From: an uncultured Gemmatimonadaceae bacterium
GTDB taxonomy: Bacteria; Gemmatimonadota; Gemmatimonadetes; Gemmatimonadales; Gemmatimonadaceae
Assembly (NCBI GenBank): GCA_963817955.1
Contig: CAWFQK010000004.1
Coordinates: 608,001-672,000 of the forward strand
Reading direction: 5' to 3'
DNA length: 64,000 bases
In this document: positions 1,638 to 22,463 of the stretch, piece by piece
Layout of the letters: the number at the start of each line of letters is the position of its first letter
How positions within the stretch are numbered: position 1 is the first letter of the stretch
Made by a program: the position numbers and the translations under genes
Notes under the pieces: model-generated
Seen by the model: the letters and a program-made list of their open reading frames with translations, nothing else
The model's database searches: none
Told to the model about the DNA's origin: nothing

Positions 1638-1711
1638 TGGGCGAAGAGGGACTCGAACCCCCGACATCCTGCGTGTAAAGCAGGCGCTCTAACCAACTGA
1701 GCTATTCGCCC
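1638..1711 (-). tRNA. tRNA-Val (anticodon TAC), CCA not encoded
   Basis: Reverse complement GGGCGAATAGCTCAGTTGGTTAGAGCGCCTGCTTTACACGCAGGATGTCGGGGGTTCGAGTCCCTCTTCGCCCA: acceptor stem, D arm, anticodon loop TTTACAC, GTTCGA T-loop. Confidence 0.97.
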
Positions 1712-1731
1712 GGGGGGTGACCTCTCTGCAT

Positions 1732-2004: not shown

Positions 2005-3010
2005 TCACTCGGGCATTTGGTCCCTTCCCGCGGACGGGTCGTCCCCCCGCAAGAGTGCCTCGATCGCGCTTTCCCGGGCTGCGCGCTCAGCCACTTCATC
2101 CGCGACGCGCATTGCCGCCAGACGCTGCCGATCTCGCTGCCGACGCGCAATATAGAATGGCACGATCAGAACGAGCAGCAACAGACCGCCAATTGCCACG
2201 TTACTCACCAGGGCGAGCGCGCCGTACCGCCGCCGCGTATCGGCCCTCCAACGCGTCTCGAATCCGCTGAGCGTGAGCCCATACGTCGCGCGCATTGCGC
2301 GATCGAGGTCGCCTTCTCGCCGCCACGATTCGAAGAACCGTGACAACCCGCCATCGGGATCGAGCGACGCCAGTTCGACCACCGCGCGGTACGCGAGGGC
2401 ATACGCGTTCTCCGCCGTCGTGGAGCCACCGTTGAGCTGTACATCGAGCTCAGCGAACGTCGGCGACCCGCGCAACGCCAGCGCAATGTTCGCCGCCAGT
2501 GCATCCTCGCGACGCCATTCGCGCGCGGCATAGCTCGCGTAACCTTCATCGAACCAGCGTGGCGGCTGATCGCCGAGGTATTCGTGCAGCGCGAGGTGTG
2601 CGAGTTCGTGTCGGAAGACCTCGCTTGGATCGCCGGCATCCGCGCCGGCGCCGCGGCCCTGCATCACGATACGTCGCGAGTCGGGGAAGGTGATCGCCGC
2701 GCCCCATTCCGGGGCTTCGGGCCCCGCCCATTCGCGGAAACGGCGCGCATCGGGCGCGATCGCCAGCAGCACGTGTTCATGTGGCCGCGGCAGCCCGGGA
2801 AACGTATCGGTGCGCTGCGCCTGCTCGAGCAGCGACGTCGCCAGCACAGCTTCCGTGGGATAGAAGACGGCCGTGAACCGCCCACGATCGATGCGTTTGG
2901 GGGCATCGGCTTGGGACACGGCGCACGAAACACGGGACACGGGAAAAAGCAGCAGGAGTGTTGCGACCGTCGCAGCCAGCCACCGCGTGACGCACGACCT
3001 GCGGAGCAGG
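2005..3010 (-). CDS. Peptidase MA-like zinc metalloprotease with N-terminal signal/TM and C-terminal TM; start codon uncertain
   Basis: HELAH (HExxH) followed by WFDEGYASY (third-ligand Glu); hydrophobic N- and C-terminal segments. No clean ATG/GTG near the upstream stop. Confidence 0.75.
2914..2941 (-). repeat. Four degenerate heptamers (CGTGTCC family) inside the signal-peptide coding region
   Basis: Coding strand CGTGTCC CGTGTTT CGTGCGC CGTGTCC. Confidence 0.55.
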
Positions 3011-3014
3011 TGCC

Positions 3015-3875
3015 CTACGGTTCGCCCCCCGCCTCCACGGTCTTCAGAACCTCCGCGCACCGTTTTCCCCACGGGGTGAACTTGTTCGCCGCGAAACCGG
3101 CTCGCCATGTCTCGATTGCCTCGGCCCGCTGCCCGTTGAACCAGTACGCGCGACCGAGCTCATAGTACGCCTCGATCAAGTTCGGCCCGAGCGCCAGCGT
3201 CTTCTGGAAGAAGGTCTGTGCATCCTCGAACATGTCACGCTCGAGATACACCAACCCGAGATAGAAGTGCGCATACAGCAGTGCCTTCTTATCATTGCCC
3301 AGCCTGATGGCGCGTGACAGGTGCTCGATCGCTTCGCCGAATATGCCTTTCTTGAGACAGATGTAACCCACGTTGATGCGGGCGAGCGCATTCTGCGGCT
3401 CCCGCACGAGCACTTTCTGAAAATTGAGCAGTGCGTCGTCGAACTTGTCCTGCAGCATCTGCGCCCAGCCCAGCAGTGATTCCGCCTGCGGATCGTTCGG
3501 CGCAAGCTCCAGCGCCTTCATCAGGGCCTGCTCTGCGCCGGCATGGTCGCCGAGCGAAATCTTGCTCCATCCCTTCTCAATGAACGTCGAGGCGCCAATG
3601 TGGTCGGCGTGCACCACGGGCTTTTCACCAATGAACGCGGGCGCGAGCGATGGCTGCGCGCCTTTCACGCCTTTCACGCTTTTCCACGTCTCGACGAGCT
3701 GCAGCACTTCTGCTTTGAGCACGACGAGATCCGTGAGCTCCTGCTCGACGCTCTTGAACAGCACGCCGATATCGGTCTTCAGCGCACTGAGGTCGGCTGC
3801 GGCGGCAGGTGAGGCGAGGCGGACGCGGAGCTCGTCACGGCGCACCCGCAGGGCATCCACCAGCCGCTCAGCCAC
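3015..3875 (-). CDS. TPR protein with N-terminal coiled coil
   Basis: Repeated TPR motifs (ALELAPNDPQAESLLG, LVREPQNALARINVG, LALGPNLIEAYYELG); GTG start overlaps the cheW stop. Confidence 0.85.
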   Translation of the reverse strand: MAERLVDALRVRRDELRVRLASPAAAADLSALKTDIGVLFKSVEQELTDLVVLKAEVLQLVETWKSVKGVKGAQPSLAPAFIGEKPVVHADHIGASTFIEKGWSKISLGDHAGAEQALMKALELAPNDPQAESLLGWAQMLQDKFDDALLNFQKVLVREPQNALARINVGYICLKKGIFGEAIEHLSRAIRLGNDKKALLYAHFYLGLVYLERDMFEDAQTFFQKTLALGPNLIEAYYELGRAYWFNGQRAEAIETWRAGFAANKFTPWGKRCAEVLKTVEAGGEP

Positions 3876-4353
3876 GAACAGTAACCTCGGCGGCTCGCAC
3901 GGTGCGCTCGAAGACGATGCGATCGGCGGTGGACAGCACACGGTCAACGTCGAGAATCACCACGAGCTGGTCGCCCGTTTTCACGATGCCGCGAACGAAC
4001 TCGGAAGCAAGGCCGCGGAAGAGAGCCGGCGGCGGCGAGACGCTCGTCGCTGGCACCGCGGCCACTTCCAGCACGGCATCGACGATCGCACCGACGCAGC
4101 CATCCGCGGTGTTCAGGACCAGGATGCGCGTGGAGGACGTGACCGGCGTCTCGGGCAGCTCCATGCGTCGACGCATATCGACGGCAGGGATCACCGCGCC
4201 ACGGTGCTCGAACACGCCTGCGATCCACGCAGGCAGATCGGGCACGTTGCTTGGCGCTGCGTAGCGCAGCACCCGATCCACCGCAAAGATGTCGGCGGCG
4301 AACCGGTCCAGCCCCAAGCGGAAGGTGACGAGCTTCACGACGTCGGTCTTCAT
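3868..4353 (-). CDS. cheW: Chemotaxis coupling protein CheW
   Basis: LVTFRLG...VPDLPAWIAGVFEHRGAVIPAVDMRRRM...GAIVDAV...ILDVDRVL. Confidence 0.9.
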   Translation of the reverse strand: MKTDVVKLVTFRLGLDRFAADIFAVDRVLRYAAPSNVPDLPAWIAGVFEHRGAVIPAVDMRRRMELPETPVTSSTRILVLNTADGCVGAIVDAVLEVAAVPATSVSPPPALFRGLASEFVRGIVKTGDQLVVILDVDRVLSTADRIVFERTVRAAEVTVRG

Positions 4354-4811
4354 GCGATCTCTCCTGGCCCTTCACCCGTCAAAACGGACACGGCCGCCAC
4401 CGCCAGCAACGCGTCCGCGTTGAGCACCGCGATCAATTCTGCTCCACGACGGACGACGCCCGCCAGCATTCCATCCGACGACTGATTGCCCGGCACGGCG
4501 AGCAGCTCCCGGGCCTCGACAGTGATTGCGTCCTGCACATCGTCGACGGCGAAGCCGGCTCGCCGTTCATCGCGTGCGAATAGCAGCAGCACCCCATCCG
4601 CCCGTCCGCCGACGTTCAGGAGCGACCGGGGGTCATATATGGTGACCAGCGCGCCGCGAATAGCCGCGATACCGAGGACCGATGGCGGCGCGTCGGGGAC
4701 AGGATGCATCGCCGGCAAGTCCATCACTTCTTCCACGGATGCCAACTCGACGGCAAAGCGCTCGCGTCCCAATCGAAAGACGAGAAGCCGCGCCGCACCG
4801 TCACGGAACAT
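4350..4811 (-). CDS. cheW: CheW-like protein
   Basis: LLVFRLGRERFAV...VPDAPPSVLGIAAIRGALVTIYDP...GFAVDDV; ATG at 4811 overlaps the cheB stop. Confidence 0.85.
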   Translation of the reverse strand: MFRDGAARLLVFRLGRERFAVELASVEEVMDLPAMHPVPDAPPSVLGIAAIRGALVTIYDPRSLLNVGGRADGVLLLFARDERRAGFAVDDVQDAITVEARELLAVPGNQSSDGMLAGVVRRGAELIAVLNADALLAVAAVSVLTGEGPGEIA

Positions 4812-5868
4812 GCCGCAGCGCCTCCACCATCTCGCTGATGACCGGGGCGATCTCGTGCAGCGGGGCGACGCGATCGGCGCCCGCATGCTGCAGCGCCATC
4901 TGCGGCATGCCGAAAATCGTCGCGGTGGCGCGATCCTGCACGATAGCCCGGCCTCCGGCTTCGCGGATCAAACGGGTCCCTTCGCTGCCGTCTCGCCCCA
5001 TGCCAGTGAGCACGACGGCCACCGTCGCCGCACCAAACACCTCCGCCGCAGAGCGGAACAATCGGTCGGCTGCGGGACGCACGCCCCAGATCGATGGCGA
5101 TGTATCGAGCACGATCGTCGGACCATCGGGGTCGCCGCGCACCCGCATGTGGTAGCCGCCGGGCGCCAAATAGACGTTGCCATGCACAACGGGCTCGCCG
5201 TCCTCGGCCTCGTGGATCCGGATCGGACTCAAGGTATCGAGCCGCTGGGCGAGACTCTTCGTGAACCCAGCCGGCATGTGTTGCACGATGAGCACCGCCG
5301 CGGGGAGTTCGCGCGGCAGATGGGGCATGATCGCCGCGAGCGCGCGCGGTCCGCCAGTCGATGACGCGATGACCACTGCGTGCGACGCGCGCGTGAGCGG
5401 ATCGATGCGCCGGACGCCCTCCAGCGAGGAACGCGCCGGCGTCTTCAGGCCGGCGAGGTTCGCCGCCGCCGCGCCGCGCAATGCGGCCACGAGACGATCG
5501 GCAATGAGTCCCACATCGAGGCTGATCGAGCCCGACGGCTTGAGCACGAAGTCCACCGCGCCCAGTTCGAGCGCCTTGAGCGTCGCCTCCTGCCCGCTGC
5601 GTGTCGTTCCGGCACTCAGCATGACCACCGCGCGCGGCGTTTCGCTCATGATATAGCCAAGCGCACTCAAACCGTCGAGTTCCGGCATGTCCACGTCGAG
5701 CGTGACAATATCTGGATCGAGCTCGTGAATCCGCTTGAGCGCGTCGAATCCGTTCCGCGCCGTACCCGCCACCACGAACTCTCCCGAGTCATCGACGATC
5801 TGCGAGGTCATGCGGCGCATGAACGCGCTATCGTCCACGACGAGGACACGCGGCTTGTCAGAGGACAC
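4801..5868 (-). CDS. cheB: Protein-glutamate methylesterase CheB (REC + esterase)
   Basis: REC: VLVVDDSAFMR, TLDVDMP, FVLKP. Esterase triad motifs SSTGG, VQHMP, TGMGRDG. Confidence 0.96.
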   Translation of the reverse strand: MSSDKPRVLVVDDSAFMRRMTSQIVDDSGEFVVAGTARNGFDALKRIHELDPDIVTLDVDMPELDGLSALGYIMSETPRAVVMLSAGTTRSGQEATLKALELGAVDFVLKPSGSISLDVGLIADRLVAALRGAAAANLAGLKTPARSSLEGVRRIDPLTRASHAVVIASSTGGPRALAAIMPHLPRELPAAVLIVQHMPAGFTKSLAQRLDTLSPIRIHEAEDGEPVVHGNVYLAPGGYHMRVRGDPDGPTIVLDTSPSIWGVRPAADRLFRSAAEVFGAATVAVVLTGMGRDGSEGTRLIREAGGRAIVQDRATATIFGMPQMALQHAGADRVAPLHEIAPVISEMVEALRHVP

Positions 5869-6349
5869 GCGATCCCCCGCGCAGCGAGCGCACTTCCACG
5901 CGGCCATCCGCTAGAAAGAGGTACACGCTGCGGCCGTAGTCGCTCCCGGTGTCCTCGGCCACGATCGGCAGGTTGGCGCCGGCGAGCACTTCGCGCACCG
6001 CAGTGACGTTCCGTTCCCCAATGTTCATGCCGCCCGCCGGAAGGACGTTGCCAAACATACTCGCGCCGCCGGCGATTCTCGCTCGAATGCGCCCGAGGCT
6101 GGCGCCGAGGTCCCGCATCTCGGCGAGCACCAGCGGAACCACCGTCTGTGGAAATTTCGCCGGATTGGATCGATCGCGCGACATGCTCTCGCTTGGCAGC
6201 AGCACGTGAGCCAGGGCGCCAACGCGCGCCACGGCGTCGTACAGAACAATCGCCACGCACGATCCGAGGCCGATCGTCGAGATCGTCCCGTCGGCGGCGA
6301 CGGCATAGTCGGCGACCTTCACGCGCCGCTCGACGGGAATGGCCGTCAT
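5858..6349 (-). CDS. cheD: Chemoreceptor glutamine deamidase CheD
   Basis: TIGLGSCVAI...LAHVLLP...IAGGASMF...IGERN...EDTG motifs. Confidence 0.93.
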   Translation of the reverse strand: MTAIPVERRVKVADYAVAADGTISTIGLGSCVAIVLYDAVARVGALAHVLLPSESMSRDRSNPAKFPQTVVPLVLAEMRDLGASLGRIRARIAGGASMFGNVLPAGGMNIGERNVTAVREVLAGANLPIVAEDTGSDYGRSVYLFLADGRVEVRSLRGGSRVL

Positions 6350-7170
6350 AGGCGCCGAAAGATTCGTTGCCGCGCATCGACGGGCGCGAAGTGGGTGCGC
6401 GCACGTCCGAGCAGGGTCTCGACCTTGCCGAGCACGAGGAATCCGTCCGGCGCCAGCGCGTCGTAGAAAGTATTGAACAGCCGCTCCTGCGTATCCCGGT
6501 CGAAGTAAATCAACACGTTTCGGCACACGATGAGGTCATGCGGCCCCGGCGGCGGCGGCTCGCTGAGCAGATCGCGTCGCTCGAACCGCACCATGCTGCG
6601 AATGGCTGAGGATACGGCGAAGGGCGACGCGACCGCGAAGTACTCCTGTCGCAGATCGCCAGGCGTGTCGTCGAAGTCGCCTGGCTCGAATTGTCCGCGC
6701 CCAGCCGCGGCGAGACATTGCTGGTCGATGTCGGTTCCCACCACCCGCACGCGCCCAATCCGGGCGAGCGAATCGTTGAGGGCCGCGTACCGATGAAACA
6801 GAATGGCGAGCGAATACGGCTCGTCTCCCGACGAGCACCCCGCGCTCCACACGCGAATCGCCGGCTGCTCGCGGCGCCAGAGCGCGGGCACCACGTGCTC
6901 CGCCATCGCCGCGTAGGCATCCCAGTTTCGAAAGAGTTTCGTGACATTGATCGTCAACGCATCGAGCAGCCGGTCGTATTCTGCGGCGTCCCGATCGAGG
7001 AGTCGCGCGTACTCGTCGTAGGTGTGCACACCGCGCGCGCGCATGCGCACGGCAATCCGCCGGCGCAGACACTTCTCCTTGTACGACGCACAGCCGAAGC
7101 CGCGCTCCGCGGAGATCTTGTGCGTCAACTCCAAGAACCCAGCCTGCTCCTGCTCCTGCTCCGGCATCAA
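6346..7170 (-). CDS. cheR: Protein-glutamate O-methyltransferase CheR
   Basis: LTINVTKLFR, WSAGCSSGDEPYS, GTDID, DLIVCRNVLIYF, GFLVLGKVE. Confidence 0.95.
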   Translation of the reverse strand: MMPEQEQEQAGFLELTHKISAERGFGCASYKEKCLRRRIAVRMRARGVHTYDEYARLLDRDAAEYDRLLDALTINVTKLFRNWDAYAAMAEHVVPALWRREQPAIRVWSAGCSSGDEPYSLAILFHRYAALNDSLARIGRVRVVGTDIDQQCLAAAGRGQFEPGDFDDTPGDLRQEYFAVASPFAVSSAIRSMVRFERRDLLSEPPPPGPHDLIVCRNVLIYFDRDTQERLFNTFYDALAPDGFLVLGKVETLLGRARTHFAPVDARQRIFRRL

Positions 7171-8786
7171 TACACCTGCCGAATCGATTCCAGATTCGTA
7201 CGCACGATTGCGTTGTTCGGATCGAGCTCGAGCGCCCGCTCCCAGCAGCGTAGCGCTTCATCGCGCTCCCGCCGCCGCAGGCGAATGTTGCCGAGCTTGA
7301 GATAGACGTCGGCCCCGAGATCCGGGTCCGCCTTCGTCGCGCGCAGGTACGACTCGAGGGCGTCGTCGTACCGGCCGCCGCGGTAGTGCAGGTCGCCCAG
7401 GTTCTTGTGGAGCTGCGGCATGCCGGGATCCTCATGGAGGCCGCGTTCGATGGTCTCACGCGCATTGTCGTAGGCCGTGCTGCGTTCGAGCGCCGCGGCG
7501 AGGTTGTTCCAGAGCGCCGCGACGTGCGGATGGGCCGACACGCCCTCTGTCAGCACGATGGCGGCGCGCGACGTGTCTCCGGCGAGCGCGGCCGCAAGCC
7601 CCATGTAGTGGTACCACGCCGCAGTCGGCGGACGGGTGCCGAACAGCGTCCGCGCCGACGCGAGCAGCGCGTCGGCCTCCGCGACATCGCCCGTCATGAG
7701 CGTCACCACACCGAGCGACGTCTGCACGCGCGGATCGGCCGAACCACCGCGCCGCGCGGCCTCCTCGAGCGCTGCACGCGCTTCCTCGTATCGATTGAGC
7801 CGCTCCAGCGCGTAGGCCAGGTTGTGGAACACCGCCATGTGCGCGCCCGGTTGCGCCGCCGCCTCGGAGAATGTGGCGGCCGCGTCTTCCCACTTCTGCT
7901 GGCGGGCCAGCACGAGACCGATGTAGAACCGCGCCACCGCGTCGAATCCGCGCAGATCGAGCACACGCCGGAATTCCCGCAACGCCTCATCGAGCATATT
8001 GGTCTTGTAGAACGCGATCCCGAGGTTGCGGTGTTCCTCGATGCGCCCTTCCGACGGCGCGGGAGCCGGCGGCGCCGTCTTGCCAATGCGATGGATGAAC
8101 CCCGTGGTGAGCAGGCCGTACAACGCCTTCCCGACCTCGAACTCCACGAGGCCTGACTCGTCGATGATTGCTTGCACGTCGCGCGTGCCGTCGACCAACT
8201 CGAGCACGGCACGCTGCTCGTCGGTGAGCGCTGTTTCGCTCGATAGGACCTTGGCGCGATCTATCTCGAAGACAATGTCGAACGTCGGAATCTTCTTCTC
8301 GACGAGACCCCACTCATCGACTCGCCGGGCACCCTCGAGCAGCAGCGACTCCGGATTGATCGATACGACATGGTCATGCTGATCCGGCGCGACGTCAGCC
8401 TCGAAATTGAATGTCCCCTGGTTCCAGGTGAACAGGAAGTACACCGCTTCCTGAATCTGCACATGGATGGCGTCGTGCAACTGCTGCAGACTGAGCGCGC
8501 CCTGCTCCACCAGCAACTCGCCAAGCCGCTTGTCGCGCCGGCGATCCTGCAGCGCCACACTGGCCTCCAACCGCGCCTGCGTGACGATGCCGCTCTTCAC
8601 CAGCATGTCGCCGAGTCGATCGCGCCGGTTCACGATGGAGGCGTAGCAGATGCGGCCCTTTTCGAAATAGACGTACCCAAAGCTGTTCCGGTGCGTGACG
8701 CTCAGGCACCCCGTCTTCTTCCCCATCGCCAGAAGCTGGAGAACGTCGGGAAGGCTCGCTTCCTTGAGGCTGCCGCGGATGGCCAT
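7167..8786 (-). CDS. DUF4388 (PatA-N-like) + MshEN-like motif + TPR protein
   Basis: AIRGSLKEASLPDVLQLLAMGKKTGCL...WNQGTFNF...ESLLLEGARRVDEW is the DUF4388 signature; two RLGxxL repeats; many C-terminal TPRs. Confidence 0.85.
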   Translation of the reverse strand: MAIRGSLKEASLPDVLQLLAMGKKTGCLSVTHRNSFGYVYFEKGRICYASIVNRRDRLGDMLVKSGIVTQARLEASVALQDRRRDKRLGELLVEQGALSLQQLHDAIHVQIQEAVYFLFTWNQGTFNFEADVAPDQHDHVVSINPESLLLEGARRVDEWGLVEKKIPTFDIVFEIDRAKVLSSETALTDEQRAVLELVDGTRDVQAIIDESGLVEFEVGKALYGLLTTGFIHRIGKTAPPAPAPSEGRIEEHRNLGIAFYKTNMLDEALREFRRVLDLRGFDAVARFYIGLVLARQQKWEDAAATFSEAAAQPGAHMAVFHNLAYALERLNRYEEARAALEEAARRGGSADPRVQTSLGVVTLMTGDVAEADALLASARTLFGTRPPTAAWYHYMGLAAALAGDTSRAAIVLTEGVSAHPHVAALWNNLAAALERSTAYDNARETIERGLHEDPGMPQLHKNLGDLHYRGGRYDDALESYLRATKADPDLGADVYLKLGNIRLRRRERDEALRCWERALELDPNNAIVRTNLESIRQVY

Positions 8787-10708: not shown

Positions 10709-10730
10709 GCGACGATTCCTCTCCACGTCG

Positions 10731-11336: not shown

Positions 11337-11355
11337 GGGTGTCGAGCGGCAAGGG

Positions 11356-11826: not shown

Positions 11827-12173
11827 GGAAGAAACTCCAGCGCCTTCAGCAGTTCCACGCGAATCAAACCCACGTTGGCCGCAGCCTCAGCCACGACGAC
11901 GATGACGAGGTCACTGCGCCCGGTACCCGCAGCGCAGATCCGTCCCCGCTCGGCGTCGAGCTGGAGAAAGCCGACAGATCCGAGCCGCGCCGCGTTCGCC
12001 GACAACCGCGCCTTGCGGTAAATCGACGCCGCCAACGCCGCAACGCGGTCGCCATCCTGACCGAAGCGCAGGTTGGCGTCCACTACGAGACCGTCACTCT
12101 GCGAGACGATCAAGCTGGCTCGTACGCCACGGAGACGGGTCAGCGATTCGAGCAGATCAGCAAAGGGACTCAT
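11823..12173 (-). CDS. Roadblock/LC7 protein
   Basis: LRGVRASLIVSQSDGLVV...VAALAAS...ANVGLIRVEL. Confidence 0.85.
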   Translation of the reverse strand: MSPFADLLESLTRLRGVRASLIVSQSDGLVVDANLRFGQDGDRVAALAASIYRKARLSANAARLGSVGFLQLDAERGRICAAGTGRSDLVIVVVAEAAANVGLIRVELLKALEFLP

Positions 12174-13841: not shown

Positions 13842-13846
13842 GGGCG

Positions 13847-16540
13847 CTAGTCCTTCCGTCGCGGACCGAGGATGCGTTCCAGATCCGTCACCGTCCGGAT
13901 CTCCCGGCGCGCGCGACGCGCCCACTCCGACGTCGGCCCTAACTCCACGACGCGTTGCCACCGCTCGACCGCGCCGCGGTATCGGCGCTGTTCCGCCAGG
14001 ATGCTGCCTTCATGGAACAGCGCGCCGATATGCGACGGGTCGAAGCGCAGGACGCGAGCGAACGCCTGCACGGCATCGCGTTTGCGCCCGAGCGCGAGCA
14101 GAGTTTCCCCGAGTGCGATCAGCGCATCGAAGTGATAGGGATCGCGCTGCAGCAAATCGATCAGCTGCTCCAGCGCTTCAGCGGGGCGTCCAAGGCGCCG
14201 CCGCAACGTCGCGAGCTCCAGTGTCGCCTCGGCATACGTCGGTACGGCGTCGAGCGCGGCGACCAGCTCCTGTTCGGCTTCGCGGTTCTGCCCCTTTGCC
14301 TGTAACAAGCGCGCGAGCTGGAAACGCACCACCGCGAAATCCTGGTCGAGTTGCAGCGCATGGCGATATGCCGAGATCGCGCCTTCGTTATCGCCGAGGG
14401 ATCGGGCAATGTCGCCCATCTTCTGCTGCACGTCGGCGCGCATGGGCGCGGCGCGCCGCGCCGCATCGAGCACCGACAGCGCCGCCGCGGGATCGCCTGC
14501 TTCCGCGCAGGTGGTCGCCATGAGCATGAGCACATCCACGTCATCGGGACAATGGGTGAGCAGCTGCTGGGCGAGGGGACGGGCCTCCGCGGCGCGTCCG
14601 AGGCGGACGAGTGACGAGGCTTCCCCGATCGCGGCAGCGCGCCTTTCGGGTTCGAGCCGTAAGGCTTCGCGATACCGCTCGAGGGCCTCGCCGAACAGCC
14701 CTTGCTTGGCAAAGACGTCTCCAAGGAGCGTGAGCCCGTCGGCGCGCGCACCTCCGCGAGACATGGCGCGGCTGATCTCGGCCGAGGCGCGGTCGTACAA
14801 TCCTTTGGACAGGTAATCCGCCGCCATCGCGAACGGCGACGCATCCGTGCCGCGCGACGGCGTCACCGGCGACGGAAAGGCGACCGGCCTCAGCTCGGTG
14901 AAGAGCGTGTCGAGCGACTGGGCGTCGAAGCTGAAATCGGCGATCGACGCGTCGGCCAACCGCTCGCCGCCGAAATCCGGTCGAATCGAGAGGTCGGGGT
15001 CCTCGTACTCGACGTCCATGGCCAACTCGAACTTCTGCGGGACGTAATAGGGATCGAGCTCCAGCGCACGCTTGGTTTCGCGTAACGCGCCTTCAAAGTC
15101 ACCGAGGTTCGAGAGCGTGAAGCTCATGTTGTAGTGTGCTTCCGCAACGTCCGGCTTCGACTGGATCGACCGCGCGAACGCGTTCCGCGCATCATCGTAC
15201 TTGTGCAGCTCCGAGAGGACGAGCCCAATGCCGTTCCACGCGACGTGCTGTTCCGGCGCGTTCGTCAGCGCCCGGCGGTACGCATCGAGCGCGGCGGGAA
15301 ATCGTTTGCCGCGTGCAAGGAGGAGCGCCATGTTGAGGTGCGCCTTGACAAAGCTGGGCTGTTCGTCGAGCGCGGTGCGGAAGGCGCCGATGGCCTCGTC
15401 CACCGCACCGCGGTGATACAGCACGACGCCCAGGTTGTTGTGCGCAATGGCGTAGGTGGGCTCGGCCTGCAGGGCGTTCCGGTAGCTGGCCTCCGCGTCG
15501 GGGAAGCACCCATCCTGGTGCAGCGCCACGCCGCGCTCGTTCCACAGCTTGGGACTCGACGGCTGCCGCTCCAGCAACTCGTTGTACAGCGCGAGCGCCT
15601 CGTTCGGCTGTCGCATGAGCAGATGCATCTCGGCCATGGCCTGCAACACGAGATCGCGCTCCTCGCCCCGTTCCAGCGCGACACGGTATTCGCGCATCGC
15701 CTCGGGGAAATACCCGTTGCTGCGGAACGCGAGACCGAGATTGTAGCGCGCGAGTTGGCCTTCGCCCGACACCTGGAGCTCGCGCCTGGCTGGCGCGGGC
15801 CCATCCTCCGGTCGCGCCGCCCGCTGTTGGTCGATCGCCAAATTCGCGTGGGCGCGCGACAACGTGGGATTGAGCGCAATGGCGCGGCGGGTCACGGCCT
15901 GCGCGTCTTCATGCCGTCCCATGTCGCCCAGGACGAACCCCATCAGGTAGAGCGCGTCGTGGTTCTCGGGATTGCGCTCGATCGCCCGTTCCAGGGCCCG
16001 TAGTGCTTCGTCGTTCAGTCCGCGATGATAGAGCACTTCACCGAGCGAGAACTGCAGCAACGAGCTGTCGGAGTCGAGCGTGAGCGCGCGCTCGAGCAGC
16101 TGCTGCGCGCGTTCGATGTCGCCAGTCTCCTTCTCGGCCATCGCGAGCTGCAAGAGCGCGCCGACATCCGACGGGGTGACCTGCAGCAGCGCGCGGAATT
16201 CCTCCGCCGCATCGTCCTGCTGGCCGAGCAGCGCATAGGTGCGACCGAGCTCCCAGCGCGCATCACGATCCTCGGGGCGCAGCCGGAGGCGCTCTTTGAG
16301 TTCCGGAATACGAGTATCGTAATAGCCCGTGTTGAAGTAGGCGATTTCGAGATTCCGTTGCGCGACCTGCATCTTCTGGTCGAGGTCCAGCGCCTTCATG
16401 AACGCGGCGACGGCCTCCCCGTACAGCCCCTTGTTGTAGTACAGCACCCCCAGATTGTTGTGCGCCCCGGCATCCGACGGATCGATCCGCCGGGCAAACG
16501 AACGTAAGACGTCGCGATCGCGTTCCGAGGTGAGTGCCAC
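13847..16540 (-). CDS. Large multi-TPR protein (897 aa)
   Basis: Many TPRs (AHNNLGVLYY, ARWELG, ARYNLG, LWNERG, AHYNMS) interrupted by an acidic non-TPR linker. Confidence 0.9.
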   Translation of the reverse strand: MALTSERDRDVLRSFARRIDPSDAGAHNNLGVLYYNKGLYGEAVAAFMKALDLDQKMQVAQRNLEIAYFNTGYYDTRIPELKERLRLRPEDRDARWELGRTYALLGQQDDAAEEFRALLQVTPSDVGALLQLAMAEKETGDIERAQQLLERALTLDSDSSLLQFSLGEVLYHRGLNDEALRALERAIERNPENHDALYLMGFVLGDMGRHEDAQAVTRRAIALNPTLSRAHANLAIDQQRAARPEDGPAPARRELQVSGEGQLARYNLGLAFRSNGYFPEAMREYRVALERGEERDLVLQAMAEMHLLMRQPNEALALYNELLERQPSSPKLWNERGVALHQDGCFPDAEASYRNALQAEPTYAIAHNNLGVVLYHRGAVDEAIGAFRTALDEQPSFVKAHLNMALLLARGKRFPAALDAYRRALTNAPEQHVAWNGIGLVLSELHKYDDARNAFARSIQSKPDVAEAHYNMSFTLSNLGDFEGALRETKRALELDPYYVPQKFELAMDVEYEDPDLSIRPDFGGERLADASIADFSFDAQSLDTLFTELRPVAFPSPVTPSRGTDASPFAMAADYLSKGLYDRASAEISRAMSRGGARADGLTLLGDVFAKQGLFGEALERYREALRLEPERRAAAIGEASSLVRLGRAAEARPLAQQLLTHCPDDVDVLMLMATTCAEAGDPAAALSVLDAARRAAPMRADVQQKMGDIARSLGDNEGAISAYRHALQLDQDFAVVRFQLARLLQAKGQNREAEQELVAALDAVPTYAEATLELATLRRRLGRPAEALEQLIDLLQRDPYHFDALIALGETLLALGRKRDAVQAFARVLRFDPSHIGALFHEGSILAEQRRYRGAVERWQRVVELGPTSEWARRARREIRTVTDLERILGPRRKD

Positions 16541-16576
16541 GGGTGAATGCTGGGTACGGGTCGCCGGGGCGAACGA

Positions 16577-17194
16577 TCAGGCCACGCGCACGGCTTTGAG
16601 AATCGCCTGCAAGGAGGCCGAATCCGGCAGCAGCAGGAAGAAGCCGTGGAGCCGTTCGCCGATCTCATCCATCAGGAATTCACTTTCGACACAGAACACA
16701 TAATCCTTGTCGCTGCCGAACTGGAGATACGCCGTCGTGAGCACCGCCGTCGACATGTCGATCGCCAGACTGGGCGGCGACGGCAGCAGCATCATGCCCA
16801 TGAAGTCGCTCAGCGCATTCATGTACGCCGAGCTGAGAATGTTGCCGGCTTCCTTGATTGCCGACCGCTCCATCTCCGAGAACTCGTCGCCGGTACTCGG
16901 CCGGCGGAGCAGCATGCCCGCGAGGTGAATGGCGGTGCGCCGTGGAAACACGAGCAGCGTGCGCCCCGTGAGATCGCCCATCATGTGCATGAGCACCGCC
17001 GCCACCGCCTCATCGGGCTCCCCGATCTGCGGCGGGACGTCCTCGAGCCGCGACACGTTGATCCTGGGCACACTGATCATGATCGTCTCGCCGATCATCT
17101 GCGACAGCGCCGTCGCCGCATGCCCGGCGCCGATATTCGCCACCTCGCGCAGCGCGTCCAGTTGGATGGCTTTCAGCGAGCGAAGATCTTCCAT
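16577..17194 (-). CDS. cheC: CheC phosphatase
   Basis: Two active-site motifs DALREVANIGAGHAATALS and SAIKEAGNIL; ends FFLLLPD. Confidence 0.93.
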   Translation of the reverse strand: MEDLRSLKAIQLDALREVANIGAGHAATALSQMIGETIMISVPRINVSRLEDVPPQIGEPDEAVAAVLMHMMGDLTGRTLLVFPRRTAIHLAGMLLRRPSTGDEFSEMERSAIKEAGNILSSAYMNALSDFMGMMLLPSPPSLAIDMSTAVLTTAYLQFGSDKDYVFCVESEFLMDEIGERLHGFFLLLPDSASLQAILKAVRVA

Positions 17195-17200
17195 GGTTCC

Positions 17201-19126
17201 TCAGAGCAGACTACTGACGTCAACGATGAGCGACGGAGTTCCGTCGCTGAGGAGTGTGGCACCAGCGAACACCCGCGGCCCGTCACGCACCGCGTCGTAC
17301 TGCTTGACGACGATCTCTTCCTGCCCCGTGATCTCGTCGATCGCCAACGCGGCGCGACGGTCGCCGACATCGAGCACCGCGGCATGTTCGAACGCGATCT
17401 CACTCGGCGCCTGGTACGGTGGCATGCCGACGATCGATCGCAGGCGCAGCAGCGGCAACAGCTCGTCGCGCGCCAGCACCACCTCGCGCCCCTGCACCGT
17501 CCGCACGATCTCCGGCACGAGCTCGATCGTTTCGCTCACATGAGCCAGTGGAATGGCGTACGTCTCGTCGTCGACCCGCGCGAGGAGCGCCCGCACGATG
17601 GCCAGCGTCAATGGCAGTCGCAGGATCGTCGTCGTACCCTGCCCCGGCACCGAACGGATGTCCATGGCACCGCCGAGCGCGCGCACGCGCGTGTAGACGG
17701 CGTCCACACCGACGCCGCGGCCGGAGAGCCGGGTGATCTTCTCGGCGGTCGAGAATCCCGGACGCGCAAGCAGGCGGAGCAACTCGTCTTCCGTGAGCTC
17801 GGTCTTGTTCGCATCGACCAATCCATCACGTTTGGCGCGCGCGAGCACCCGCGCACGATCGATGCCCTTGCCATCGTCGCTCACCTTGATGACGATCGCC
17901 GAGCGATCACGCGCCGCGCTGAGCACGAGCCGGCCCACGGGCGGCTTGCCCGCGGCGACGCGGGCCTCCGGCGTCTCGAAGCCGTGGTCGATCGAGTTGC
18001 GCAACAGGTGTACGATGGAGTCGCCGATCTCGTCGAGCATCGACCGATCGAGCTCGATGCCTTTGCCGTCGACCTCGAGTTCAATGTGCTTGCCGACGCT
18101 GCGCGATGCATCGCGGACGACGCGTGGAAATCGGTCGAACACCTGCGCGACCGGCACCATGCGGCTCGCCGTAATCTCGTCACGCAACTCGGTGATCAAT
18201 CGCGACGACTGGTTCACAGTTTCCTCGAGCGCGACATCGCCCAGCTCGCCCGCGAGCTGCGTCAATCTGCCGCGCGCGATCACCAATTCACCAACCAGAT
18301 TCATGAGCGTGTCCAGGCGGCGCACGTCGATGCGCACGTGACGCGCCTTGCCGTTCGTCCGCTCCTGGTCCAACGGCAGTCCTTCCGGAGGCGTTGCGCT
18401 CGGGTCCATCGCGGAAACCGGCGGCGCCTGCCGCTCCGGCTGGTCTTCGCCCACCTGGACGTCGGCCACATCGCCCGCGCCGCGCGCGACCCCTTCGACC
18501 TGCGCGGAGTCCAGGGAGGTGACCAGTCGCAGGGCGAACTCTGCGCCGAACGACTCGGCCTGCAGATCGTTGAGCGAGGGTACCGTTCCCGTCACGTCGC
18601 CGATCTTCTTCAGTGATTGGACGATGATGAACGCCCGCACGCCGCGGAGTGGCGTGCTGGGTGCGAGCCGCACGCGCACGAGCGTGCCGGGACCTTCCGG
18701 AGCCGCCACACTCCACCCGCCGTTCAGCCGCTGCGGGTTCGGCAGTCCCAACGCGCGGAGCTGTGCCACGAGCTCGGTGTCGATCACCTCACCTTCACGT
18801 CCCGTGACGGCGGCTTCCACCGCGTGCTCCAGCGCGTCGGAGGCGCGAAACAGCACGTCCACGATATCGGGATCGATCGCCAGATCGCCGCGGCGCACGC
18901 GGTCGAGCAGCGTCTCGAGTTCGTGCGCGAGCTCGGCGACGATGGCGTACCCCATCGTCGCGCCCATCCCCTTGATGGTGTGGACGGCGCGAAAAATTAC
19001 GGCGATCGCAGGCGCCGCCTCGGGGCCCCCGGCATCGCGCTCGAGCTTGAGCAGCGCCTGATGGACCGCCGCGACGTTCTCCCGGCTTTCCGTGAGGAAT
19101 AGTTCCGCGTACTGGAAGCTATCCAC
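17201..19126 (-). CDS. cheA: Chemotaxis histidine kinase CheA
   Basis: Hpt FRAVHTIKG, P2-like region, LDTLMNLVGELVI, HLLRNSIDHG, DDGKGID, GFSTA...SGRGVGVD, LPLTLAI, C-terminal CheW domain. GTG start at 19126. Confidence 0.96.
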   Translation of the reverse strand: MDSFQYAELFLTESRENVAAVHQALLKLERDAGGPEAAPAIAVIFRAVHTIKGMGATMGYAIVAELAHELETLLDRVRRGDLAIDPDIVDVLFRASDALEHAVEAAVTGREGEVIDTELVAQLRALGLPNPQRLNGGWSVAAPEGPGTLVRVRLAPSTPLRGVRAFIIVQSLKKIGDVTGTVPSLNDLQAESFGAEFALRLVTSLDSAQVEGVARGAGDVADVQVGEDQPERQAPPVSAMDPSATPPEGLPLDQERTNGKARHVRIDVRRLDTLMNLVGELVIARGRLTQLAGELGDVALEETVNQSSRLITELRDEITASRMVPVAQVFDRFPRVVRDASRSVGKHIELEVDGKGIELDRSMLDEIGDSIVHLLRNSIDHGFETPEARVAAGKPPVGRLVLSAARDRSAIVIKVSDDGKGIDRARVLARAKRDGLVDANKTELTEDELLRLLARPGFSTAEKITRLSGRGVGVDAVYTRVRALGGAMDIRSVPGQGTTTILRLPLTLAIVRALLARVDDETYAIPLAHVSETIELVPEIVRTVQGREVVLARDELLPLLRLRSIVGMPPYQAPSEIAFEHAAVLDVGDRRAALAIDEITGQEEIVVKQYDAVRDGPRVFAGATLLSDGTPSLIVDVSSLL

Positions 19127-19149
19127 GAGATCCGGGCATCGCGCTGCGG

Positions 19150-19512
19150 TTATCCGAGCACACGCTGCACGGCCTCGAGCACGCGGCTCGGCTGGAACGG
19201 CTTGACGACGAAGTCTTTCGCTCCCGCCTGAATGGCCTCGACGACGAGCGCCTGCTGGCCCATCGCGCTGCACATGAGGATCTTGGCCTCCGGGTCGAGT
19301 TTGCAGATCTCACGCACCGCGTCGATGCCGCCCATATCGGGCATCACGATATCCATCGTCACGAGATCGGGCCGGAGCTGCTGATACCGCTCCACGGCCT
19401 CCACCCCCGTCTCCGCCTCGCCGACGATTTCGAACCCGGCCCGCGTGAGGATATCGCCGACCATGGTGCGCATGAAGATCGCGTCGTCGCAGATGAGAAC
19501 AGTCTGACTCAA
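19150..19512 (-). CDS. cheY: Response regulator CheY
   Basis: ICDDAIFMR, DLVTMDIVMPDMGG, CSAMGQ, FVVKPF; TTG start after GGAGG. Confidence 0.94.
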   Translation of the reverse strand: MSQTVLICDDAIFMRTMVGDILTRAGFEIVGEAETGVEAVERYQQLRPDLVTMDIVMPDMGGIDAVREICKLDPEAKILMCSAMGQQALVVEAIQAGAKDFVVKPFQPSRVLEAVQRVLG

Positions 19513-19538
19513 GAAATGCCTCCAGGAAGTACGAAGTA

Positions 19539-19958
19539 CTACGAGAGCAGGACCTGTGAGATAAGGGCATCGACATCGAGAATGACAACGGCTGCCTCAT
19601 CCAACGTTGCTACGCCGCGCACGATGGGGCCACGCGACCGCGACATGTCGTCGCGCTCATCGATCGCCAACTCGCGAACGTCGACCACCTCGTCGACCAC
19701 CATCCCCACCAGCCGCTCGCGGTAGCGCACGAGCAGGATCGACCCGTCGGCAATGGGCGCGCGCGACGCATCGAGGCGCACTCCCAGGTCGAGCACCGTG
19801 ATGATCGTGCCACGCATGTTGATCAGACCACGCACATGAGCCGGCGCACCAGGGAGCCGCGTCATGCGGCGCAGGGGAATGATCTCCTGAGCCGCCGTGA
19901 GGTCGCACCCATAGACTGTCGCTCCCACGCGGAACAGCAGCGTGGGAGGGAGCGCCAC
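19539..19958 (-). CDS. cheW: CheW
   Basis: TRLPGAPAHVRGLINMRGTIITVLDL...GMVVDEV...ILDVDAL; start uncertain. Confidence 0.9.
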   Translation of the reverse strand: MALPPTLLFRVGATVYGCDLTAAQEIIPLRRMTRLPGAPAHVRGLINMRGTIITVLDLGVRLDASRAPIADGSILLVRYRERLVGMVVDEVVDVRELAIDERDDMSRSRGPIVRGVATLDEAAVVILDVDALISQVLLS

Positions 19959-19959
19959 T

Positions 19960-22461: not shown

Positions 22462-22463
22462 TG

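Follow-up and report, generated by a model that had tools for sequence, protein, structure and literature searches.

Gene content and organisation of the locus

We analysed a 64,000-nt stretch of one contig (the window) from a host described as a soil Gemmatimonadaceae bacterium. Pfam and NCBIfam searches confirmed 19/19 of the genes proposed for an array at 2005..19994, and bore out the original prediction that they are co-oriented, as all lie on the minus strand. From the upstream end, the order is CheW, CheY, CheA, CheC, an 897-aa TPR protein, DUF4388/PATAN, TPR with Roadblock, Roadblock, MglB-like Roadblock and MglA, followed by a 646-aa double Bac_DnaA protein, DUF4388-TPR, CheR, CheD, CheB, CheW, CheW, TPR and a Peptidase_MA_2 zincin. 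The genes and conserved flanks are as follows:

19960..20961, minus: rluD-like pseudouridine synthase, conserved upstream flank (family search and relatives)
19539..19994, minus: cheW1 (PF01584, E 4e-30; likely start 19958, 1 nt past the rluD stop)
19150..19512, minus: cheY, single-domain response regulator (PF00072, E 1e-30; top NCBIfam model CheY_Halo)
17201..19273, minus: cheA, with Hpt, P2, dimerisation, HATPase_c and CheW domains (likely start 19126)
16577..17194, minus: cheC, CheY-P phosphatase family (PF04509, E 2.6e-22; CheC_Thtogales, E 2.7e-51)
13847..16540, minus: 897-aa all-TPR protein (Pfam), found in 10/10 loci
13005..13961, minus: stand-alone PATAN (DUF4388) protein (PF14332, E 3.9e-26; likely start 13841)
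12170..13324, minus: TPR protein with C-terminal Roadblock domain (likely start 13012, Met105 of the long ORF)
11823..12173, minus: Roadblock/LC7 protein, 116 aa (PF03259, E 5.8e-9; 4-nt overlap with the upstream stop)
11356..11826, minus: MglB-like Roadblock protein, 156 aa (PF03259, 23.8 bits; M. xanthus MglB chains, E 3e-10)
10731..11336, minus: MglA paralogue, 201 aa (M. xanthus MglA 5ymx_A, E 1.9e-75)
8786..10726, minus: tandem DnaA domain III ATPase, 646 aa (two Bac_DnaA domains)
7167..8834, minus: PATAN-TPR protein (likely ATG start 8786; the PATAN domain carries a tandem MshEN-type motif)
6346..7170, minus: cheR methyltransferase (PF01739, E 8.7e-48)
5858..6526, minus: cheD deamidase (PF03975, E 3.3e-28; likely start 6349, 4-nt overlap with the cheR stop)
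4801..5907, minus: cheB methylesterase with receiver domain (PF01339, E 1.5e-63)
4350..4886, minus: cheW2 (PF01584, E 5.4e-25; likely start 4811)
3868..4353, minus: cheW3 (NCBIfam CheW, E 8e-19)
3015..3947, minus: 310-aa TPR protein (Pfam), in 9/9 complete loci
2005..3108, minus: membrane zincin, Peptidase_MA_2 (PF13485, E 2.6e-9; HELAH motif)
1..1861, minus: TPR682, conserved downstream flank, extending past the window start (C4:607813-609861)

The frame at 3944-4375 was also considered as the third CheW gene and rejected, having no family match; it is the overlapping frame 3868-4353 that encodes CheW. According to Pfam, the array CheA carries no receiver domain, and no methyl-accepting chemotaxis protein (MCP) gene was found within the array, with eight MCP matches elsewhere in the genome. 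Lacking a hydrophobic N-terminus, the 897-aa TPR protein presumably resides in the cytoplasm, where it could serve as a scaffold or as an effector of MglA. The N-terminus of the zincin is signal-like, and a strongly hydrophobic segment spans residues ~295-323.

As the longest ORFs of several array genes run into the gene upstream, junctions were recounted using the starts nearest to the upstream stop, and the start codons on which these counts depend are inferred. Counted in this way, about 11 of the 18 intra-array junctions are overlaps and the other 7 are gaps of 4-36 nt, 36 nt being the largest gap inside the array; overlaps measure 1-11 nt, with the exception of the zincin gene (at least 46 nt). 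The overlapping or abutting arrangement originally described was thus upheld. A gap of 143 nt separates the end of the array from TPR682, the next gene downstream, and promoter and terminator scans gave signals at shuffle level. The che and mgl genes form a single conserved, tightly packed array, and the operon is probably co-transcribed.

Conservation and separability of the array

That the array goes beyond chance rests on its conservation in other families and not on window statistics. A synteny search, suggested as a check in the original prediction, found the gene order conserved in relatives. The upstream half, from cheY through PATAN-TPR, keeps the same order in 10/10 loci of f2 and f3, two other families of the order, as well as in f4 and further f2 loci (L120, L124, L127 and L134), and it recurs in another family of the class Gemmatimonadetes. 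The interleaved layout, with che genes flanking the mgl and ATPase genes, persists between families at ATPase identities of 36-50%, and CheY identity is 78-90% across all relatives examined. In the g19 loci, tblastn did not find the three Roadblock genes or cheR.

Individual components are nevertheless separable, which contradicts the earlier claim that the ATPase is a core part of the Che-Mgl unit. The ATPase is absent from two mglA-bearing loci, of which L132 is a che-mgl array and L133 contains mglA, PATAN-TPR and cheR but has no cheA. Conversely, the ATPase, PATAN-TPR and zincin genes adjoin one another without che or mgl genes in 3/3 loci of family f7, where mglA lies elsewhere. At the same time, ATPase and PATAN-TPR genes are neighbours in 20/20 loci holding the ATPase, and here the ATPase stop and PATAN-TPR start share 1 nt. 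The ATPase does not belong to every Che-Mgl unit as a core component; the gene it constantly accompanies is PATAN-TPR, not mglA.

A second MglA and three Roadblock proteins

In an alignment to M. xanthus MglA, the array protein is ~65% identical and keeps the stretches GPGRSGKTT, TDRTLFFDF and YTVPGQ, which identifies it, at sequence level, as a bona fide MglA. A second, canonical mglBA pair is located at C4:956349-957471, and most genomes of families f1-f4 have two MglA matches; the array MglA/MglB pair is a second paralogue, and its MglA is not the cell's only polarity GTPase. The MglB-like protein scored 22 bits against the NCBIfam MglB equivalog (cut-off 200). In the TPR-Roadblock protein, the Roadblock domain of this copy falls below the Pfam cut-off (16.9 bits vs 23), and BLASTP (E 10) found no likeness to the neighbouring Roadblock protein. 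However, 13/13 orthologous C-terminal domains match Robl_LC7 (best E 4.3e-8), and a profile of these domains finds solved Roadblock and MglB chains with E 6e-5 to 1e-3.

Distribution relative to flagella and pili

The genome holds two CheA genes, the second lying inside a flagellar region (fliC-fliD-fliS...cheB). In family f2, FliM was found in 24/125 genomes versus 119/125 for the ATPase; in f3, the corresponding counts were 0/3 and 3/3. Since FliM is rare and the ATPase common in f2, the system is not flagellar: the array is a non-flagellar chemosensory system. Five FliM-less f2 genomes (96-99% complete) were tested further; the array CheA is the sole CheA in four of them, PilM is present in all five, and each has 2-6 MCP matches. 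Of the proposed comparison of pil with flagellar genes, the flagellar side was informative, as the array occurs largely without FliM. PilM presence cannot discriminate between outputs, because it is near-universal in the phylum (281/301 genomes), including families without the array.

A tandem DnaA-type ATPase and its PATAN-TPR partner

The ATPase is laid out as AAA+ module 1 (residues ~8-245), a helical linker (266-364), AAA+ module 2 (~370-605) and a conserved C-terminal tail (~619-646). Both halves match DnaA domain III of B. subtilis (E 7e-55 and 5e-50), so the protein comprises two complete DnaA domain III modules; each shares about 40-41% identity with the DnaA of the cell itself, a 481-aa protein with a C-terminal domain, encoded on a different contig. 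Pfam found no domain I, domain IV (the DNA-binding domain) or clamp-binding region. The top Foldseek match was 8bv3_A (TM 0.93), and the relative placement of the two AAA+ modules in the model is uncertain (pTM 0.53). In this genome, the Walker A and B, sensor I and sensor II motifs and the box VII arginines of DnaA are all retained in each half. Among orthologues, the N-half ATP site and the C-half box VII arginine are always conserved, and the C-half ATP site is decayed in f7. Its most likely role is that of an ATP-driven switch or an oligomerising scaffold rather than of an initiator that reads DNA. Such a tandem DnaA-motor ATPase is not known to have been described.

Complex prediction among the array proteins, another check named in the original prediction, gave a positive result for the ATPase and PATAN-TPR, placing the ATPase tail in the TPR groove with scores of 0.70, 0.70 and 0.72 (best of three controls, 0.00). 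The mark used for such scores is reached by 116/157 solved complexes and 2/215 mismatched pairs, a calibration that is approximate here, the alignments being self-made. At least 72% of contacts recur between runs, and partner pLDDT is at least 77. The predicted interface is formed by tail residues 619-645, whose WxWP core is found in 20/21 orthologues, and in both ATPase-less loci (L132 and L133) PATAN-TPR can be aligned only to residue 479 of 555. Predicted interface residues are barely more conserved than the other TPR region (0.642 vs 0.581, the former value being reached by 668/10000 random subsets). The TPR domain is predicted, by modelling, to hold the ATPase tail.

The PATAN domain of the same protein (NF053729, 45.7 bits vs cut-off 38) contains two near-perfect 24-residue MshEN motifs at ORF residues 73-126. 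It shares with MshE and PilF (MshEN/GSPII) the tandem motif RLGxx(L/V/I)(L/V/I)xxG(L/V/I)(L/V/I)xxxxLxxxLxxQ, as defined in the available part of the MshEN source (PMC5013675), and a matching helical fold: the modelled insertion superposes on MshE 5htl_B with Z 10.0 and rmsd 2.0 A over 59 residues (41% identity), and on PilF GSPII-B with Z 9.0. Unlike in MshE, the insertion sits in a PATAN domain rather than N-terminally in a secretion ATPase, the motif spacer is 6 residues instead of 5, and a Leu gives way to Val in the first motif and to Ile in the second. Of the 23 sequences compared, 21 carry the first RLG...Q motif; 18 have an intact second motif and 3 (L119, L126 and L120) a degenerate one. 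The stand-alone PATAN protein has no such insertion and no MshEN motif match. Taken together, motif and model make PATAN-TPR a probable c-di-GMP sensor acting through an MshEN-type site.

Proposed pathway and competing readings

We put at about even chances the reading that the array is an operon conserved in the class Gemmatimonadetes and probably transcribed as one unit, in which a non-flagellar chemosensory pathway is wired to a dedicated second MglA-type module. Beyond the observed gene content, conservation, independence of flagella, and motif and fold likeness, we infer the direction of signal flow, the output and all protein contacts other than the modelled one between tail and TPR domain. 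Receptors encoded outside the array would act on CheA, partnered by the three CheW proteins, and CheA would phosphorylate the highly conserved single-domain CheY, with CheC, CheD, CheR and CheB providing signal termination and adaptation. Phosphorylated CheY may then engage the cytoplasmic scaffolds, namely the 897-aa TPR protein, the stand-alone PATAN protein and the three Roadblock proteins including the MglB-like one, which in turn could change which nucleotide the MglA paralogue binds or where it is located. That CheY sets the state of MglA is suggested by gene order. MglA would finally direct machinery at the pole, with type IV pili as the most likely candidate. PATAN-TPR may supply a second input, with the c-di-GMP site in its PATAN domain and the ATPase tail in its TPR groove.

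The array could instead steer cell division, polar growth or budding, with the Che pathway and MglA paralogue marking or switching the growth pole and the ATPase-PATAN-TPR-zincin trio serving as a division-associated module. It lies on one strand between yggS-divIVA-pnp-ileS-rluD and TPR682-mraW-ftsI-murE-murF-mraY-murD (the dcw cluster), both here and in relatives, and in f7 the trio directly follows yggS-divIVA-ileS-rluD in 3/3 loci. This position beside divIVA and the dcw genes would suit division or polar growth equally well and keeps the budding/growth option alive. Moreover, the sole membrane protein of the array is the zincin, with an extracytoplasmic catalytic domain, and cultured Gemmatimonas multiplies by budding as well as fission. 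However, the flank is a widely conserved block that includes the housekeeping genes ileS and rluD, and position by itself is weak evidence; a CheR/CheB/CheD/CheC adaptation set with three CheW proteins is typical of fast taxis-type signalling. Known MglA and PATAN relatives, in the accessible portions of the respective reports, act on pili or gliding (PMC3983030; bioRxiv 10.1101/2021.06.11.447907). We consider the division reading rather unlikely, and consider it improbable that the array is a historical co-location of non-communicating units (che genes, mgl/Roadblock genes and the trio). The partial loci described above (f7, L132 and L133) show units apart from one another and speak for it, but che genes stay on either side of mgl and ATPase at 36-50% ATPase identity, junctions are tight across modules (a 4-nt gap between mglA and the ATPase gene, an overlap between PATAN-TPR and cheR), and even minimal L133 has cheR beside PATAN-TPR and mglA.

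Two further readings were weighed. The tandem ATPase might regulate replication initiation, as a DnaA mimic that lacks the DNA-reading domains and joins or caps DnaA oligomers, with PATAN-TPR tying it to c-di-GMP and polarity. The DnaA motifs kept in both halves and their identity to the cell's own DnaA speak for this, as does a GKERTQEELFH stretch retained in the C half, which we take to be the single-strand-DNA-contacting helices of DnaA. Given the missing domain I, domain IV and clamp-binding region, the decayed C-half ATP site in f7 and the loss of the ATPase from lineages retaining the rest of the array, we regard this as a long shot. A flagellar chemotaxis operon with passenger genes is extremely unlikely: CheC and CheD often occur alongside flagella, and the best-scoring models for CheA, CheY, CheC and CheD are archaeal and Thermotoga-type, but the FliM distribution contradicts this reading, with most array-bearing genomes having no FliM match and the array CheA being the sole CheA in 4/5 of those examined, and the flagellar region has a separate che cluster.

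Relation to known systems

A chemosensory pathway wired to a second MglA module, the reading we prefer, has one of its closest counterparts in the Frz-MglA/MglB(/MglC/RomR) system of M. xanthus, with a Che-type pathway, a group-1 MglA, an MglB-type GAP and extra Roadblock proteins in common. In M. xanthus, Frz and its polarity partners are encoded at separate loci, according to the consulted part of PMC4316618, whereas here they share one operon. The array CheA has no fused receiver, and Pfam found no gene resembling the dual-receiver FrzZ or RomR; the array further contains PATAN proteins, a c-di-GMP motif and the tandem ATPase, and its MglA is a second paralogue next to a canonical mglBA. 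The same part of PMC4316618 describes actinobacterial conservons (CvnA-D), which combine an MglA-family GTPase, Roadblock protein and histidine kinase in one operon; the kinase there is a membrane sensor and the GTPase belongs to group 2, in contrast to CheA and group 1 here, and PATAN domains, TPR proteins and AAA+ ATPases are absent from conservons.

The original suggestion that PATAN and TPR proteins act as couplers fits the literature, as far as the excerpts of two reports go. In Synechocystis, PATAN is an output domain binding PilB1 and PilC (bioRxiv 10.1101/2021.06.11.447907). MglA of Bdellovibrio has a TPR protein as a binding partner, next to a c-di-GMP receptor, at the pole bearing type IV pili (PMC3983030). 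Cyanobacterial Tax/Pix systems with PatA-type (PATAN-REC) regulators also combine a chemosensory pathway with PATAN, but in the array PATAN is stand-alone or TPR-fused, with no receiver fusion, CheY is separate, and MglA and Roadblock proteins are present. The B. bacteriovorus MglA-Bd2492-RomR-CdgA hub, as described in the same excerpt, shares MglA, a TPR protein and a c-di-GMP receptor with the array; the receptor there is a degenerate GGDEF protein rather than an MshEN-type insertion in PATAN, Bdellovibrio has no MglB, and the hub includes no Che genes. Finally, compared with the initiator-clade AAA+ proteins DnaA, Hda and DnaC-IstB, each half of the array ATPase is a full DnaA domain III, but a single chain carries two modules joined by a 100-residue helical linker, has no domain I, II or IV, and ends in a conserved tail predicted to lie in a TPR groove.

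Organisation of the array

The array, a run of 19 minus-strand genes at window positions 2005-19994 that extends from the first cheW to a gene for a membrane zincin (Peptidase_MA_2), is real and conserved, and varies a known regulatory theme in a novel way. Its most plausible interpretation is that of a chemosensory pathway coupled to a dedicated MglA module and receiving c-di-GMP as an input, in which, according to the structural models, the tandem DnaA-like ATPase (window 8786-10726) would be attached to the neighbouring PATAN-TPR (DUF4388-TPR) protein. The source genome measures 4.53 Mb in 9 contigs (94% complete, GC ~65%). Pfam and NCBIfam bore out the 19 genes in the order originally predicted, with the third CheW placed in frame 3868-4353 and no match in either collection for the overlapping frame 3944-4375. 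Taking as start codons those nearest the upstream stops, with translations, the 18 junctions comprise about 11 overlaps and 7 gaps (4-36 nt), counts that depend on these inferred starts; the stop codon of the ATPase gene shares one base with the start of PATAN-TPR.

A gap of 143 nt separates the array from the next gene, the conserved downstream flank gene TPR682. Judging by this packing, the array genes are probably co-transcribed. Scans of window 1-20000 returned 3 promoter-like sites (2.4 expected) and 11 terminator-like sites (11.4 expected), both at shuffle level and uninformative. One scan site lies at 1940-1912 on the minus strand, inside the 143-nt gap. A search of sequencing runs for window 7000-16900 listed none of RNA and only four of soil-metagenome DNA, all from a single study and each with 5-11% of its words.

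Conservation and natural variants

The tandem ATPase was found in 41/41 relatives sampled. At E ≤ 1e-60 it was matched in 194/301 genomes of the phylum sample (190/297 excluding the four unpublished genomes G185, G210, G089, and G128), a tally that admits at least one genuine DnaA (a 463-aa frame in genome G286, aligned to query residues 11-260), so that counts close to the threshold are upper bounds and family f6 is effectively 0/23. By family at the same threshold, matches occurred in 52/69 (f1), 119/125 (f2), 3/3 (f3), 5/6 (f4), and 11/47 (f7) genomes, and in none of f9-f12.

Conservation of gene order, to which the original prediction had looked for confirmation, holds for the upstream half: all 10 fetched loci from f2 and f3 keep the order cheY-cheA-cheC-TPR897-PATAN-TPR/Roadblock-mglB-mglA-ATPase-PATAN/TPR (TPR897 being an 897-aa TPR protein), and the plain Roadblock gene is present in 9 of them. 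The same array occurs in the f4 loci (L120, L124, and the short L123) and in a complete f2 genome (L127). Downstream genes are more variable; among the nine f2/f3 loci uncut by a contig end, cheD and the gene for the 310-aa TPR protein TPR310 were found in 9, cheR and cheB in 8, and the third cheW and the zincin gene in 5.

Several loci depart from this plan. In family f7, all three loci consist of rluD-ATPase-PATAN/TPR-zincin only, preceded by yggS-divIVA-(pnp)-ileS; MglA (58-60% identity) is located elsewhere in 5/5 f7 genomes tested, and no other array gene lies near it in the two f7 mglA regions fetched. Two loci of the genus-level group g19, from complete genomes of 4.6-5.3 Mb, represent a reduced variant, in which tblastn found no TPR-Roadblock, Roadblock, MglB, or cheR genes. 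Locus L132 holds a che-mgl array without the ATPase, and its PATAN-TPR protein is without the MshEN insertion described below; L133 is reduced to rluD-mglA-PATAN/TPR-cheR-TPR310. In L134 (genome G069, f2) the array is full, with an MglA (L134:11837-12415) that is 36% identical and neighbours that are 41-78% identical; ten genomes of its genus have one MglA match each (E 1e-50), and the eleventh, G138, has none. The PATAN-TPR gene is present in 22/22 loci and adjoins the ATPase gene in 20/20 ATPase-bearing loci, and comparison of these variants therefore leaves it as the one constant. They also provide ready comparisons for the dependence of the parts on one another: ATPase, PATAN-TPR, and zincin alone; the array without the ATPase; and a minimal mglA/PATAN-TPR/cheR locus.

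A chemosensory pathway distinct from the flagellar system

The array contains a chemosensory core, namely a CheA with Hpt, dimerisation, kinase, and CheW-like domains, together with CheW. Hallmarks of the Frz type in Myxococcus xanthus are the CheA-receiver fusion FrzE and the dual-receiver output protein FrzZ; unlike Frz, the array has a CheA without a Response_reg match, and its sole receivers are CheY and CheB. No MCP gene lies in the array; the genome has 8 MCP matches elsewhere, and five relatives have 2-6 apiece. An MCP gene (783-aa frame) stands beside a CheW-like gene at G000:C4:1703128-1704460 of the source genome, distant from both che clusters, and together they are a candidate receptor pair for one pathway or the other.

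The genome holds two CheA genes, that of the array and one in the flagellar region, where the cluster reads fliC-fliD-fliS-cheY-x-cheA-cheW-mcp-cheR-cheD-RR-cheX-cheB (x, an unknown 235-aa gene).

Flagellar chemosensory region of the source genome
G000:C7:94000-112000 (L117) and C7:66000-86000 (L118): flagellar che region; its CheA has no P2 match

This flagellar che set lies ~30 kb from fliF, fliG, fliM, fliN, fliP, and flhB, with fliI, fliL, and fliR also nearby. FliM was matched in 76/301 genomes of the phylum sample (f1 34/69, f2 24/125, f3 0/3), far fewer than carry the ATPase. Of five f2 genomes in which FliM was not matched (G171, G027, G025, G033, and G037; 96-99% complete), four have the array CheA as their only CheA. 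The array is non-flagellar.

A dedicated MglA paralogue and three Roadblock proteins

The array MglA aligns with M. xanthus MglA (5ymx_A) over residues 1-199 at E 1.9e-75, including the P-loop GPGRSGKTT. M. xanthus MglA has exactly the same aligned residues in the switch-I arginine stretch TDRTLFFDF and in YTVPGQ (TxxGQ), where Thr replaces Asp; the corresponding positions in M. xanthus MglA are R53 (the intrinsic arginine of switch I), T78, and Q82. Thr78 of MglA is named in the part of PMC3000849 consulted. By its full-length homology and its P-loop, the GTPase belongs to the group 1 MglA family. A canonical mglB-mglA pair is found outside the window (G000:C4:956349-957471, equivalent to L131:6349-7471, minus strand); its MglA is nearer to that of M. 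xanthus (E 2e-84) and bears a ~38-residue insertion before the last helix. As most genomes of f1-f4 likewise have two MglA matches, the array MglA is a dedicated paralogue.

Counting the TPR-Roadblock and plain Roadblock proteins, the array encodes three Roadblock proteins. The MglB-like one just passes the Pfam cut-off for Robl_LC7 (23.8 bits, cut-off 23) and aligns with M. xanthus MglB at E 3e-10, with 22 bits against the NCBIfam MglB equivalog (cut-off 200). In this copy the Roadblock domain of the TPR-Roadblock protein falls under the Pfam cut-off, and BLASTP of its C-terminus against the neighbouring Roadblock protein gave no likeness (E 10); the domain was confirmed through 13/13 orthologues (best E 4.3e-8) and by searching solved structures with a profile.

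A putative c-di-GMP site in the PATAN-TPR protein

Both PATAN proteins of the array match PF14332 (E 8.4e-39 and 3.9e-26), and, unlike PatA-type regulators, in which PATAN is fused to a receiver, neither has a Response_reg match. PATAN-TPR also scores 45.7 bits (cut-off 38) with NF053729, an MshE-related motif of NCBIfam. MshEN, the c-di-GMP-binding module of MshE and PilF, consists of two 24-residue motifs in tandem, according to the portion of PMC5013675 consulted. Residues 73-96 and 103-126 of the PATAN-TPR ORF match the relaxed motif in full and the strict one nearly. The first RLG...Q motif is present in 21 of the 23 sequences compared and the second is intact in 18, with degenerate copies in L120 (f4) and both g19 loci; the motif region is missing from L132.

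The modelled insertion superposes on MshE 5htl_B with Z 10.0 (rmsd 2.0 Å, 59 aligned residues, 41% identity) and on the PilF GSPII-B domain 8pdk_A with Z 9.0, and an MshE-type fold ranks first in Foldseek, though with E 0.023. By motif and by the helical fold of the model, which resembles residues 7-65 of MshE, PATAN-TPR carries an MshEN-type module with a putative c-di-GMP site. A preprint (bioRxiv 10.1101/2021.06.11.447907) has already noted that some PATAN proteins bear a GspE_N annotation, so databases show this combination in part.

Towards its C-terminus (model residues 161-235; protein at window 7167-8786), the PATAN region is winged-helix-like, with subunits of GATOR1/SEA as best structural matches (8fw5_B, Z 9.4; 8adl_S, Z 9.2), followed by many MarR-type winged helices. 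These matches were discounted as an argument for a GAP-like (GTPase-regulator) fold, being too weak: Foldseek E-values were 0.1-0.7 with poor rmsd, and VIA-align restricts the likeness to residues 161-235.

A tandem DnaA-domain-III ATPase

The two halves of the 646-aa ATPase align with domain III of Bacillus subtilis DnaA (E 7e-55 and 5e-50); they share 42% identity with one another, and each shares 40-41% with the DnaA of the cell itself. The AAA+ motif set of domain III (Walker A and B, sensor I, box VII, and sensor II) is present twice, and the score of 511.6 with the DnaA equivalog TIGR00362 (cut-off 343.9) is reached only through the sum of the two modules. Neither domain I nor domain IV was found, as Pfam (E ≤ 0.01) gives AAA+-type families only and the DnaA alignments stop at domain III. 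The AlphaFold model (pLDDT 89.4, pTM 0.53) consists of two AAA+ modules, a helical linker (266-364), and a short tail, with flexible stretches at 244-266 and 609-631; its best Foldseek match is DnaA domain III 8bv3_A (TM 0.93, rmsd 1.7 Å).

Among 21 ATPase orthologues, N-half motifs are intact in 20. In the C half, Walker A is lost in 3 f7 proteins and the Walker B aspartates are altered in 4, with the box VII arginine kept in all 21. The C-terminal tail, REKxVWxWP, retains its WxWP core in 20 of these, one f7 protein having WxWM. In DnaA, the ATP site of each protomer is completed by the box VII arginine of the adjoining one. Together with this role, the pattern of loss and retention suggests that the C half may serve the ATP site of the N half, within or between molecules.

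The public name of the ATPase and its relatives is 'chromosomal replication initiator protein DnaA'. This label is likely a systematic misannotation, because the ATPase has no DNA-binding domains and the genome has its own DnaA (a 481-aa frame on contig C3). Nor does the ATPase fit Hda, the DnaA inactivator, which has one domain III of ~230 aa and a clamp-binding motif at its N-terminus: the ATPase has 646 aa and two modules, and its TIGR03420 score is 166 (cut-off 194.8). A protein homology search with the ATPase was saturated by close relatives, the best 120 matches all being at least 74% identical, and so carries no information on other phyla. Ten distant representatives comprise eight of tandem form (644-660 aa) and two longer proteins (897 and 1990 aa); five of these clusters are named, three with an organism, always Gemmatimonadales. 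The family is one without described function, and the array places this DnaA-derived ATPase in a functional context for the first time and supplies a partner that can be tested.

Docking of the ATPase tail in the TPR domain of its neighbour had been expected before modelling. Modelled together with PATAN-TPR, ATPase residues 370-646 gave complex scores of 0.70, 0.70, and 0.72, with 0.00 for the best of three controls; the mark applied to such scores is reached by 116/157 solved complexes and 2/215 mismatched pairs, a rough calibration since our own alignments were used. Contact agreement between runs was at least 72%, partner pLDDT at least 77, and the modelled interface joins tail residues 619-645 to TPR residues 283-494 (numbering from the ATG at 8786). 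Interface residues show only a weak excess of conservation over the remaining TPR residues (among 10000 random subsets, 668 reached the observed value), and the PATAN-TPR proteins of both ATPase-less loci align no further than residue 479 of 555. The predictions support, short of showing, binding of the ATPase tail by the TPR domain of PATAN-TPR.

We hold it quite unlikely, even taking the two versions jointly, that the ATPase is a new kind of polarity or cell-cycle device, in which the ATP-dependent head-to-tail assembly of DnaA, removed from replication and tethered by the tail to the c-di-GMP-sensing PATAN-TPR, would act as a timer or polar scaffold, or else a DnaA mimic that would link replication initiation to c-di-GMP and to chemosensory/MglA polarity in an asymmetrically dividing phylum.

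Output of the array and its surroundings

We infer that the output of the array is most likely pili or polarity, and the main rival is an output at the division or growth pole. PilM is encoded in all five of the FliM-less f2 genomes and in the source genome; the latter also has ATPases resembling PilB/GspE (five) and PilT (three or four). Co-occurrence with pil rather than flagellar genes had been proposed as a check on the original prediction; on the flagellar side, most array-bearing genomes gave no FliM match, and on the pil side, PilM does not discriminate. It is present in 281/301 genomes, including families without the array, and was set aside as an indicator of output; type IV pili are therefore always available as one. 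The rival draws on the surroundings of the array, a cell-division neighbourhood.

Cell-division neighbourhood of the array
Window 21235-27764 and G000:C4:598240-609861 (L130), minus strand: cell-division neighbourhood; same flanks in relatives

Upstream on the same strand stand yggS, divIVA, a phosphorylase gene (pnp), ileS, and rluD, with one opposite-strand gene between ileS and rluD, and downstream, on the minus strand, follow TPR682, a 153-aa ORF, mraW, ftsI, murE, murF, mraY, and murD. As far as gene order goes, these flanks keep open a possible role in division or polar growth.

In the part of a small-GTPase survey consulted (PMC4316618), group-1 MglA is reported in Gemmatimonadetes with occasional PATAN neighbours, and that part makes no mention of che neighbours or a DnaA-like gene by mglA. 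Neither the arrangement nor the tandem DnaA-like ATPase in Gemmatimonadota was found described in the literature searched; table S2 of PMC4316618 (mglA neighbourhoods) may list the Gemmatimonas locus. The route from chemosensory system to MglA in Myxococcus is still being worked out, and its parts there are dispersed across the genome. Here, one operon offers a candidate parts list, comprising a kinase and CheY, three Roadblock proteins, PATAN/TPR scaffolds, a putative c-di-GMP site, and a GTPase, in a soil phylum that is widespread and little studied.

Other genes in the window were recorded in passing. The gene between ileS and rluD is a 418-aa ORF (window 21235-22491, plus strand) without a Pfam match, found in the same place in four f1 loci (L119, L126, L132, and L133). 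A housekeeping row at 29734-35418 (minus strand) holds tilS, a phosphoribosyltransferase gene, ftsH, and a CdaA-type c-di-AMP synthase with an N-terminal membrane domain, and is adjoined by a TMEM260-like putative O-mannosyltransferase. At 35565-38564 (plus strand) lies a 999-aa ORF with no Pfam family at E ≤ 1e-6. Isocitrate lyase and malate synthase of the glyoxylate shunt are adjacent at 38505-41502, after which the opposite strand encodes a GDSL lipase and an outer-membrane transporter of the FadL type.
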